This document shows positions 3,342 to 62,711 of a stretch of DNA of 64,000 nucleotides, in pieces. Numbering within the stretch: the stretch's first letter is position 1; each line of letters starts with the position of its first letter. Made by a program: the position numbers and the translations under genes. Source of the DNA: Octopus sinensis (lineage: Eukaryota); assembly GCF_006345805.1 (NCBI RefSeq), contig NC_043009.1, forward strand, positions 15,562,001-15,626,000. The letters are read 5' to 3'. Under the pieces are notes generated by a model, which saw only the letters and a list, made by a program, of their open reading frames with translations, was not told the origin of the DNA and searched no databases.

Positions 3342-3370
<29 letters not shown>

Positions 3371-3373
<3 letters not shown>

Positions 3374-3664
3374 CACGTCACGTGACCGACTAGGTTATCA
3401 GATGTTGCTACACATCGCTGGTCACAATGCCCGTCGCATTGTTTTAGCCTTCAAATGACGCCACACCACTGACTAAGTGAGCAGGCCAACAGAAGAAAGA
3501 GTGAGAGAAAGTTGTGGCGTAAGAGTACAGCGGGGGTCGCCAACAACCTCTGCCGGAGCCTCGTGGAGCTTTAGGTGCTTTTGCTCAATAAACCCTGGGA
3601 ATCGAAACCGCGACGCTACGACCGCGAGTCGGCTGCCCTAACCACTGGGCCATTGCGCCTCCAC
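3371..3664 (-). mobile_element. tRNA-derived SINE, family C
   Basis: Minus strand begins ggaggcgcaatggcccagtggttagggcag...gtttcgattccc (A and B boxes); homologous to 37736. Confidence 0.85.
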
Positions 3665-4049
3665 ACACACTTATATATATATATATAAAGAGAGAGAGAG
3701 GGAGGGAGAGAGAATATGAGGTGTTGTATATATATACATGTTTGTATTTACGTACTATTTTGTGCATATTCCACTGACAAGGCAAAGCATTTCTTATGCA
3801 AAGCCAGAAATCCGGGATCTGGAATTATCGAATAATTTTTTGCTAGTTTGTTTTGTCTGTTTGTCTTCTCACCTGATGATGTAGGAATATTTTATGTGGT
3901 TTTAGAGTCAATTTTCTACTGCTATATGGTATCTTTTGTGATGGTATCTTTCAGATACGCTTAATTATAATTTAAAAAATAATTATATATATATATGTTT
4001 GTGTGTGTGCGTGTGTGTGTGTGTGTGTATGTGCGTGTATCTATGTATA

Positions 4050-4430
4050 AGCGCAGGCGTAGCTGTGTGGTAAGTAGCCTGCTTTATCTCGAACCCACCA
4101 AAGCCTTGTGAGCGAATTTGGTAGAAGGAAACTGAAAGAGGCCCCATGTATATATACATGCACACACATGTGTGCGTTTGTGTGTGTATGTGAGTGTGTG
4201 TGGGAGTGTATTATGTGTGTGTGTGTGTGTCTGTCTGTGTCTGTGTCTGTATTTTCTATTTGTCCCTCTATCATCGTTTGATAACAGATGATGGTGTGTT
4301 TACATCTCCGTAGGCTAGCGGTGCGGCAAAACTATTCAAAGAGTAAGTCCAAGGATCGAGTTTTTCGACTAAAGGTGTACTCAGGCATGGCCGCAATCAA
4401 ATGTCCAAAGCAAGTAAAAGTATAAAAATA
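4050..4430 (+). mobile_element. SINE family B with internal microsatellite, internally deleted
   Basis: gcgcaggcgtagctgtgtggtaagtagc head, ccaaagccttgtgag..ggaaactgaaag, gcatggccgcaatcaaatg tail shared with 14181 and 46221 copies. Confidence 0.8.
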
Positions 4431-4451
4431 TAAACGAATACACACATATAC

Positions 4452-4484
<33 letters not shown>

Positions 4485-4584
4485 TGTATGTATGTATGTA
4501 TGTATGTATGTATGTATGTATGCATGTATGTGTGTATGTAAGTATGTTTGTATGTATGCAAGTATGTTTGTATGAAATGATATC

Positions 4585-52133: not shown

Positions 52134-52169
<36 letters not shown>

Positions 52170-52170
52170 A

Positions 52171-54529
52171 TAAATATTAGGGAATAAATCCAAATTTAGG
52201 ATTAAATCCAATTTTATAGTAACATATTATATAATATTAATTAGAGACAAAACCACTATTTTGAAAAACAAACAAGGAAAGACTTAATCAATACATAGCG
52301 CACACGTATACATGCGTGAGGCACACGCGCACGGCATGTGCGTGTGCCCCCTCACATGTACATATGCATGCTTACTGGGCTCGATATGTGCAACGGTGTG
52401 TTCGCGCCCGCACTCATGCAGATGGGTGAATTGCACAACTAAAATACGCACACGTGTGTGTGTGCGTATTTTGGTTGTGTAATTTGTTTATCTGTGTGAG
52501 TGTGGGTGTGAGCGCATTGTTGTGTATGTCGGGTTTGGTACGTATGTATATGGATATGTGGGGGGGGGTGTACGTATGTGTTGTGTGTGTGTGTTTTGCG
52601 TATGTGTGTTTGTGAGTGAATGTATATATGGGGATTGCTATGTGGGTGTAATTGTGTAGGGTGGGGGGAGTTTTGTCATTGTATGTGTGTGGTTTTCATT
52701 TGTCATGATGGTTTGTTGGTGATTTGTGGTAGGTTCTGTATATTTGGGTTGATTATGTATTGTTATTGTGAGTGCAATTGTATACATGCATGATTGGTGT
52801 GCGTGGGATTGCGCCCATTTTTGGGGATGTATGTGTTTATTTGTCTGTGTGGAGTGGGAGTGGGTTTTTGTTGTATATATTGAGGTTTATACGTATGTAT
52901 AGGTATGTGTGAGTGAGGTGGGTATTTGTATATGTCGTGGGTGTGTGGTTTACGTGTGTGTATTTGTGTGTGAATGCATAGGTTAGGGGATTGCTATATA
53001 GGTATGTTATAGAGTTTAGTAAAGGGAAGTTTTATCATTATATGTATTTATGAGTTTTAGTTTATCATGGTAGTTTTATTAAAGAATTCGCAGTAATTTA
53101 TGTCTATTTATGATGTTTGTTATTTTATTACATTATTCCATTCATAATTTTTAAGTAATGTCCGTTTACAACGTGAATATAATTTTTAATTCCATTTATT
53201 CCATTTCTCCATTCATAATTTTAAATGACGTTCGTTTCCAGAGCGCGAATACTTTTTATACATATGTTAGGTTCCTATGGTAACGTAATTTTGTTTGACG
53301 TTTTTAACGGCTAGAGTTTCAATTTCACTTCATAATTTGAAACTGACTTGAAAGTATGTATATTTTTTCTCCTTGTGTTAATCTTGTTACTTATGATATT
53401 CTGGTTACCTATGAAGTATTTTATATATCGTATTATGTGTAGTAATGTTGTTTTTCTTTTGAGTGTTTATGTATGTGTGAATGTGTGTGTGTGTGCGTAT
53501 TTTAGTTGTGTAATTTATTTATCTGTATGAGTGTGGGTGTGAAAATATTATTGTATATATCGAGTTTAGTAAGTATGTATATGTATATGTGAGGGGGTAT
53601 ACGTATATGTTGTGTGTGTGTTTTACGTATGTATATTTGTGTGTGAATGTGTATATGGGATTGCTATATAGGTGTAATTGTGTATGGTAGGGGGAGTTTT
53701 ATCATTATATGTATGTGGGTTTCATTTATCATGATGGTTTATTGGTGTTTTGTAGTAGATTCTGTATATTTAAGTTGATTATATATTATTCCATTCATAA
53801 TTAAAAAAAAAAAAAAAAACGTTCGATCACCACGTGCAAAGAATTGTTTATTTTGCTTTTGAGTGTTTATGTATGTGTGAATGTGTTTGTGTGTGTGTGT
53901 GTGTGGGATTATTTGCGTAATTTATTTATCTGTATAGATGTGGGTGTGAATATATTGGTGTATATATCGAGTTCTGTATGTTTGTATATGTATGTGTGAG
54001 CGGGTATACGTATATTGTTTATGAATGTGGGTTGTATGTGTGTGTGAGGGAGTATGAATAACTATTGTGTTGAAGTATTTGGCTATTTTATTTATTTATC
54101 GTTGCCTAGACGTTTTTATGTGTATGTATAGGGATATATATATAGGTGTGTGAGTTAGTGTATGTGTTTTGATATGGTTATATATAATTAGTTATATGTG
54201 TATGGGTGTATATATAGTTTATTTTTATTTTGTTTTATATTTAATTGTTGATAGGTTTATTTTAGTTTATATATTGATTATATATGGATTATATATAGGT
54301 TATATATAGATTATATATTTATATTTTTTCATTGATACTTTAATTATTTTAAGATTATTTTTTATACTTATATTTTAAAATATTGATATTTTAGATCGGA
54401 AATCCACCTGAAAATTGTCGATCAAGACATGAAACAATTGTAGTGGCGTTTTTTTTAATTTTATTAAAATTTTATGTATTGATTAAGTCTTTCCTTGTTT
54501 GTTTTGCAAAATAGTGGTTTTGTCTCTAA

Positions 54530-54542
<13 letters not shown>
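52171..54542 (+). mobile_element. Penelope-type/retrozyme-like non-coding insertion: ~70-bp inverted ends, GT-rich internal repeats, internal hairpin, hammerhead motif
   Basis: IR 52228-52297 / 54473-54542 (1 mismatch); repeat units starting near 52460, 53490 and 53890; hammerhead-like 54404-54446. Confidence 0.7.
54404..54446 (+). ncRNA. Minimal type I hammerhead ribozyme-like motif with G8 changed to A
   Basis: CCAC-CTGAAAA-T-TGTC-gatcaa-GACA-T-GAAAC-aatt-GTA-GTGG: stem I, stem II, palindromic stem III, GUA site. Confidence 0.65.
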
Positions 54543-54576
<34 letters not shown>

Positions 54577-61873: not shown

Positions 61874-62295
61874 CTATAAGGTGAATTCAAAATAACCCAT
61901 TATTAGGTTCGCAAGACCAGGAGCTGCTTTCGGCCCCATCGCAATTCCGCATTTCTGACGATAGCATGTGTCATCAAATAGGAAATAATTGTTCTGAAGT
62001 ATAAATTTTAAGGATTCAATAATAAAGATCTGGTTTATGCGTTGTGGGAGTAATTCGGGGTACCTTTCCAACCAGAATTTAATTGCTTTTATTCTATAGT
62101 CAAGGGGGGTGTCGGTGTAAAGATTGATAATAGCGAGGGTAACCAATATTGCCTCTTCATTAATTGTTTTTGGTAGGTGTTCTAGCATGTCTAAAACATC
62201 CCTAATGAAGCTTTTGATGTATTTCAGCAAGGTTTTCAGTAGGATGTCTAGAAATTTGCTTAGGCGGTGGGTTTCACTGGCTGGCCCATCTACAT
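61874..62295 (-). mobile_element. Penelope-like element reverse-transcriptase fragment
   Basis: [69 protein letters not shown]; abuts (TA)n. Confidence 0.9.
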
Positions 62296-62300
62296 GTATA

Positions 62301-62407
<107 letters not shown>

Positions 62408-62711
62408 GTACGTATGTATGTATGTATATATATATATATATATATGCATATATATGTATGTAAGTATGCATGTATATATGTATGTATGTGTCTATGTATG
62501 AATGAATGTATGCATGTATGCATGTCACACCCCACGAAAACTTTATGGAGGACTAAGTCTGTTTGCATATTCTGGTAAACTTCATCTGCCAACAATATGG
62601 TGGAACTCCGACCCTCTGAAACTGCAATCGAATATGTAGCATCATACTTTCTCCCAATTTTTGATGTGTTTCTATCCTGTTTATTGTTGCTGCGTACATA
62701 TATATGTATAT

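Follow-up and report, generated by a model that had tools for sequence, protein, structure and literature searches.

Introduction

Long RNA duplexes are substrates of ADARs, for which published accounts describe editing of up to 50% of adenosines and an avoidance of those that follow a G (PMC4693238, PMC8586724). The closest precedent for the locus reported here is found in the avian retroviruses, where ADAR-type A-to-G hypermutation was described in the U3 region of RAV-1 (Felder 1994) and in an inverted repeat of avian leukosis virus (Hajjar and Linial 1995), as related in two reviews (PMC12925331, PMC8586724). In the reviews' accounts, as at our locus, an inverted repeat in a retroelement RNA had nearly 50% of its As changed to G, and the changes were recovered via reverse transcription. 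Unlike these exogenous retroviruses, however, the element studied here is a non-viral Penelope-like retrotransposon with its putative edits in the host genome, amplified to about a hundred copies and bearing a second layer of changes that followed an inversion to the other strand.

Footprints of another deaminase family, the G>A changes left by APOBEC, are fixed in vertebrate LTR retrotransposons and, in the summary given by Knisbacher and Levanon (PMC4866542; also PMC2873906), absent from 19 invertebrate genomes. The pattern described below resembles those footprints (PMC4866542) in being a strand-biased hypermutation of the host-deaminase kind, fixed in genomic retroelements and polarised by a subfamily consensus. 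The APOBEC changes, as presented there, are sense-strand G>A from cytidine deamination of cDNA and independent of stems, whereas ours are A>G, confined to a stem and found in an invertebrate. Somatic hyper-editing of inverted repeats in transcripts, known from Alu pairs and from the repeat-directed editing of coleoids (PMC4693238, PMC9068888), shares the kind of substrate and the signature, but as described it concerns RNA only, while here the changes are in DNA and inherited. The available sections of PMC5974252 and PMC9068888 likewise treat repeat editing at the RNA level only.

The element itself has its nearest described relatives among the C-terminal EN+ Penelope-like elements of the Neptune, Nematis and Hydra types (Craig et al., PMC8557442; Frangieh et al., PMC11167929). 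It shares with them, in the traits those papers outline, a single RT plus GIY-YIG ORF, a pseudo-LTR, 5' truncation, inverted 5' pieces, an optional tail, (TA)n targets and a hammerhead-like core. It differs from the elements as outlined there in its long, repeat-built, G/T-rich 3' UTR with an inherited, apparently hyper-edited internal hairpin, and in its tail of about 85-90 nt as against 30-40. A full-text literature search, with most subscription papers outside its reach, returned no account of ADAR footprints that had become fixed in the germline of a host within a Penelope-like element or any other non-viral retrotransposon, and no germline-amplified, strand-switching case.

Results and Discussion

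A hairpin within a Penelope-like retroelement's 3' UTR

The window analysed here is a 64,000-nt stretch of Octopus sinensis DNA. It contains an insertion of ~2.4 kb (52171-54542) that is marked by an outer inverted pair (52228-52297 and 54473-54542) and by (TA)n on both sides, the repeat listing placing the target microsatellites at 52136..52170 on the left and 54543..54574 on the right. On the minus strand at 52171..52297 is an inverted piece of the element's 3' end, optional tail included: 52228-52297 is 99% complementary to 54473-54542, and the tailed 3' end recurs in other copies. This piece is a 5' inversion of the kind that Penelope-like elements make on insertion. The pseudo-LTR with the fixed 3' end occupies 54136..54542 on the plus strand, the same sequence being found upstream of the ORF in the long relative L063. 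Within it, a degenerate hammerhead-like motif (54404..54446, plus strand) has one core base altered, whereas the core in the L063 pseudo-LTR is intact; Rfam run on the window gave no hammerhead match and only generic miRNA-hairpin matches far below the gathering score.

Searches of the octopus genome with the repeat unit and with the hairpin yielded 1,466 and 1,296 candidates, the best 40 of which matched at 89-100% and 82-100%, respectively. The 3' end of family copies is fixed and borders on (TA)n, the tail being present or absent; the copies are variably truncated at the 5' end and frequently carry an inverted 3'-end piece. In the longer loci an ORF lies on the strand that corresponds to the window's plus strand, with a copy of the 3' end ahead of it (L063). 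This ORF, with RT motifs and, towards its C-terminus, those of GIY-YIG, was found on the same strand in L063, L062, L075, L076 and L078, and the plus strand is therefore the RNA strand. It carries RT motifs (PMG..S...DL, YRDD) followed by a C-terminal Zn-knuckle, VVY..YIG, R and H, and aligns with 23 homologues of ~700 aa; the single RT-then-GIY-YIG arrangement of C-terminal EN+ elements is thus seen in the ORFs of the relatives. The frame is shifted in the copies that were read and is absent from the window copy. An Atlas search with the ORF gave a first match at 0.98 and clusters with PF26215 and RVT_1; among 25 aligned ORF members, RVT_1 matched in one and GIY-YIG in one, and Pfam scans and PDB sequence searches with the element's own ORF pieces returned no RT match.

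A pseudo-LTR or partial tandem, truncation at the 5' end, an inverted 5' piece and an optional tail, which are structural traits of Penelope-like elements, were all found, and the 5'-truncated Penelope-like element spanning 52171-54542 has the hairpin in its 3' UTR. A DNA transposon or MITE, which the 70-nt terminal inverted pair might suggest, would have terminal inverted repeats of fixed length. Some copies lack the inverted end piece, which in others reaches about 3 kb, and truncation at the 5' end differs from copy to copy; this reading was rejected because of these varying lengths and the presence of the RT ORF.

Other retroelement sequences were also seen. A 191-aa open frame with RT-like motifs on the minus strand of the window (61874-62449), beside a TA-rich array, belongs to a fragment of another, probably Penelope-type retroelement, and L073 holds in reverse orientation, at about 3350-4515, a second, different Penelope-type RT ORF adjoining a copy of the present family. 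Three cephalopod proteins named "GATA zinc finger domain-containing protein 14-like" (P0003, P0045 and P0051) are homologues of the ORF described here and are likely misannotated.

A>G changes in both arms of the window hairpin

Within the UTR, 52347-52453 and 52460-52566 form an inverted pair and a third copy of the unit lies at 53491, all where the sequence-only reading had put them. Its counts were reproduced exactly: compared with the reverse complement of 53491-53597, the left arm differs at 22 sites, 20 of them A>G, and the right arm at 15, 11 of them A>G. As a polarity reference we took the majority of 8 long hairpin-less copies (L073-L080) over the non-coding region. Against this majority the surviving left arm (52298..52453, plus strand, 156 nt) showed 37 substitutions, of which 35 were A>G (35/73 As). 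The right arm (52460..52895, plus strand), which consists of a unit copy and the start of the next unit and is separated from the left by a 6-nt loop that the inverted-pair analysis placed at 52454..52459 on the plus strand, showed 59, with 48 A>G (48/107 As). The sequence beyond the stem had 12 substitutions and a single A>G in 143 As, the 3' UTR at 52896..53484 (plus strand) being essentially unedited.

For the whole stem, 83 of 180 As read G compared with 1 of 143 beyond it (Fisher p=6.5e-25). About half of the stem adenines have thus changed to G, and they have done so on the element's sense strand only. An APOBEC-edited retroelement, whose signature is sense-strand G>A, was rejected as a candidate on the stem counts of 1 G>A vs 83 A>G. 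The sequence-only reading had followed the A>G changes to at least ~52770, past the surviving left arm; the extension past the arm was correct, with the last changed site of the stem located farther on, at 52864, and the run of changes ending with the original stem (52895).

The third unit copy (53485..53790, plus strand) belongs to the same element and is in a near-ancestral state, with 8 A>G changes in its distal part (53600-53800) that likely came from alternative pairing with the left arm. An older, diverged unit copy at 53848..54060 (plus strand) served as an outgroup in the comparison of paralogous units. When the rest of the window was scanned for inverted repeats with G:U-biased mismatches, this element was recovered, and the remaining candidates coincided with simple-repeat arrays.

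A is the ancestral state, and a palindrome alone is not enough

At the edited sites, A is the base in the 8 hairpin-less copies. The older paralogous units have A at 31/40 and 13/15 of the right-arm G sites and T at 70/78 and 30/34 of the left-arm sites. Together these establish A as ancestral, and the reverse polarity, with G in the family consensus, which the sequence-only reading had named as a result that would refute it, is not what the family copies and older units carry. An unedited hairpin or tandem precursor was sought at 8 loci chosen by the ~1 kb spacing of the unedited motif and was not found; these loci proved to be further-derived flipped or related copies. The unedited state is therefore a model joined from hairpin-less copies.

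In a control region comprising the ORF and proximal UTR of L063, only 3 of 745 As had changed to G over 1,821 columns. Inverted arms made by integration showed no G:U bias, with counts of 1 vs 2 over 3,163 bp in L062, 1 vs 0 in L009, 0 vs 0 in L078, 1 vs 2 in L068, 12 vs 13 in L065 and 14 vs 12 in L067. A palindrome in the DNA is therefore insufficient by itself for the A>G pattern. Five loci (L062, L065, L067, L068 and L071) are head-to-head palindromic insertions with arms of 1.3-3.2 kb, free of the editing bias, that would be strong sources of dsRNA if transcribed.

The original stem was about 437 bp

Right-arm edits that lacked a partner in L063 predicted a longer left arm. The predicted segment was found, in full in L032 and nearly so in L036 and L044, as a 437-nt inverted copy of the entire right arm, so that the original stem measured about 437 bp. 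Of the left arm, the window copy retains no more than the final 156 nt, and this loss accounts for the edits past its surviving part.

In L032, 161 of 303 stem As are G, vs 0 of 141 beyond the stem, and the pair changes comprise 109 A:T>G:T, 50 T:A>T:G and 1 A:T>G:C. The rate depended on the 5' neighbor (A 46/69, 0.67; U 79/133, 0.59; C 28/70, 0.40; G 8/28, 0.29; p=0.009 for a 5' G), although the rate after A lies above that after U, a caveat to the ADAR bias. A 3' G gave the highest rate (15/21, 0.71), and the triplet extremes were UAG (5/5) and GAU (2/14). L036 also showed the avoidance of a 5' G (p=0.012). The sparing of As after G, claimed earlier for the window hairpin, thus held in the full-length sister arm; in the window alone (6/21 edited, p=0.10) it was not significant. 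The left arm was more edited than the right (56% vs 48%), and the predicted fold of the L063 hairpin had a z-score of -30.8. In sum, the copies show what an ADAR footprint should show: changes in both arms that are A>G and fall on the RNA strand alone, confinement to the duplex, low rates after G, high rates before G and a level of about 50%.

ADAR spares 3' ends. In the L032 stem each strand is spared at its 3' end, the left arm for 20 nt next to the loop and the right arm for its most distal 31 nt (window-equivalent positions 52434-52453 and 52865-52895), and the edits start 8-13 nt from the strand 5' ends.

The edited hairpin is a shared, amplified and genomic feature

Exact matches in the genome number 111 for a 17-mer of the edited hairpin, spread over many contigs, as against 564 for its unedited counterpart, and the reversed controls gave 0. 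In a comparison of six unflipped copies, all six have G at 71 A sites and keep A at 72 others, so that a single main event was passed on, followed by minor later changes. With or without masking of transitions, the tree leads from the unedited model through the window copy to the other unflipped copies and finally to the flipped copies described below. Because the copies share descent, they represent roughly two main events plus small increments rather than a hundred. The window copy is a 5'-truncated, early-branching member of the unflipped subfamily, and most of its edits are common to that whole subfamily, inherited from a master Penelope-like element that supplied the reverse transcriptase.

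In three DNA-labelled runs from three studies, contigs cover 30/30 bins of 52180-53000 at a likeness of at least 92%, left-arm stretches of 80-170 nt showing 2-7 differences; no contig spans the window copy's own junction. The edited arms, whose absence from raw reads the sequence-only reading had named as refuting, are present in these independent DNA data. In run X10, whose RNA type is a guess, contigs cover 26/30 bins and none of 52320-52431, which weighs neither way on expression.

Besides A>G, the left arms of three unflipped copies (L033, L035 and L038) show 6-9 C>T on their own RNA strand. In the left arm of derived flipped copies (L050-L060, L083-L090), G>A changes number about 20 and C>T changes 2-3 when read in window orientation, which is again a gain of C>T on their own RNA strand. 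Such C>T drift, together with A>G, could explain the C-poor, G/T-rich UTR.

A second A>G layer after a switch of strand

In a derived subfamily, a ~1-kb segment bearing the hairpin has the opposite orientation with respect to the ORF (L063 6365-7358 corresponds to L070 5443 to 4450), and in 4 of 8 long loci the flipped segment is directly preceded by ORF-side sequence. The inversion makes the opposite DNA strand the RNA strand of this subfamily. Each of the 21 flipped copies examined shows 32-53 T>C changes, in window orientation, within ~200 nt that have become a new inverted arm. Of the 102 As on their own RNA strand, 48 have changed in half or more of the copies, with 0 of 8 after G, and the other strand has none. 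A predicted RNA fold pairs the new arm with downstream direct repeats; these partner repeats gain 3-7 A>G per 100 nt on the RNA strand, compared with 0-1 for most of the intervening sequence. In the old stem of the flipped copies, A:C mismatch sites changed more often than A:U pairs (28/106 vs 10/86, p=0.011; pairing taken from one predicted fold), in keeping with the preference of ADAR for A:C mismatches. The flipped subfamily is a built-in control that links the direction of mutation to the RNA strand.

Origin of the changes

From the sequence evidence, we consider it very likely that the RNA of a retroelement was hyper-edited by ADAR, that the element's own RT fixed the edits and that they were then inherited. 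An inverted duplication, perhaps a 5' inversion, would have given a master copy its 437-bp perfect stem, of which the arms are present in the genome. The master transcript would have folded in vivo and been edited in both arms, as the pattern suggests. Reverse transcription reading through inosine as G, followed by integration at (TA)n, would have fixed the edits, presumably by means of the RT/endonuclease that the relatives' ORF encodes. The edited element kept moving, and about a hundred copies share its edits. In one descendant the ~1-kb flip turned the other strand into RNA, after which the new stems and the A:C mismatches were, to judge from the second layer, edited in turn. The sequence-only reading had proposed a hyper-edited, reverse-transcribed hairpin RNA, and its direction, strand, ADAR-type neighbor bias and RNA-to-DNA route are borne out, with the refinement that the edited transcript did not come from this locus, most edits being subfamily-wide and inherited from the master element. 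The adenosine deaminase domain (PF02137) has 17 matches in the genome, a count in which ADAR is not separated from ADAT or ADAD. Two of the matches (C2502:263721-264758 and C8702:808433-808852) have several internal stops and are possibly processed pseudogenes.

A process at the RNA or RT stage other than ADAR acting on dsRNA would likewise track the RNA strand and switch with the flip. It could be misincorporation by the RT of C opposite A while unwinding the hairpin, another adenosine deaminase, or ADAR acting on an RNA:DNA hybrid, an activity raised in the review PMC12925331. Yet a plain bias of the dNTP pool would neither stop at the stem ends (0/141 beyond) nor spare the ORF, deamination of the cDNA strand should appear as T>C on the sense strand, and the ~50% level, the avoidance of a 5' G and the preferences for a 3' G and for A:C mismatches are ADAR traits. 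We therefore regard this family of explanations as unlikely. An artefact of assembly or base calling, such as polishing with edited RNA reads, could be suspected from the window copy's junction, which no contig of the three DNA runs spans, but it is at odds with the 111 exact matches over many contigs, the nested subfamily structure and the edited arms in DNA-labelled runs from three separate studies, and it is barely conceivable.

A change at the DNA level would have a G+C-rich ancestor lose C or G by cytosine deamination, or would invoke mismatch repair of a cruciform or hairpin with conversion from arm to arm. Some of its ingredients do exist: CpG decay is seen in derived copies, where 6 of 23 edited Gs in CpG have reverted, G:T repair could account for the flipped subfamily's T>C changes opposite G, and C>T drift occurs on the RNA strand. 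However, hairpin-less copies and older paralogous units have A or T at the sites, the C+G-rich copies are the most derived in the tree even with transitions masked, and large palindromes made by integration lack the bias. Moreover, the Ts of the new arm hit by the second layer had lacked a G to pair with, and intermediate copies gain Cs yet keep their own Gs, which conversion would not give. Outside CpG, reversion is equal at edited and original Gs (7/106 vs 6/100); the idea that hairpin repair betrays itself through G>A reversion in the derived copies was rejected on these equal rates. The DNA-level explanation is largely refuted and in our estimation very improbable, which leaves ADAR editing fixed through reverse transcription as the strongly preferred reading.

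Significance

If ADAR is the source, patterns of A-to-I editing cross into inherited DNA in an animal. Hyper-edited retroelement RNA would then remain open to reverse transcription and spread, a point relevant to whether editing is a means by which ADAR restricts retrotransposons. Screens of transposons for deaminase footprints have sought G>A, and stem-confined A>G would make a simple second screen. The fossil may further document, site by site, how a long, perfect duplex was edited in a coleoid cephalopod's germ line or early embryo. Going beyond this locus, we lean, with modest confidence, towards a model where Penelope-like elements record ADAR activity in heritable form: inversions made by integration would yield, in the next RNA stage, long stems that are hyper-edited and written back into the genome, and host editing would thereby be a recurrent, stem-targeted germline mutagen that founds subfamilies while their mobility is kept, and that may have shaped the G/U-rich UTR of the family.
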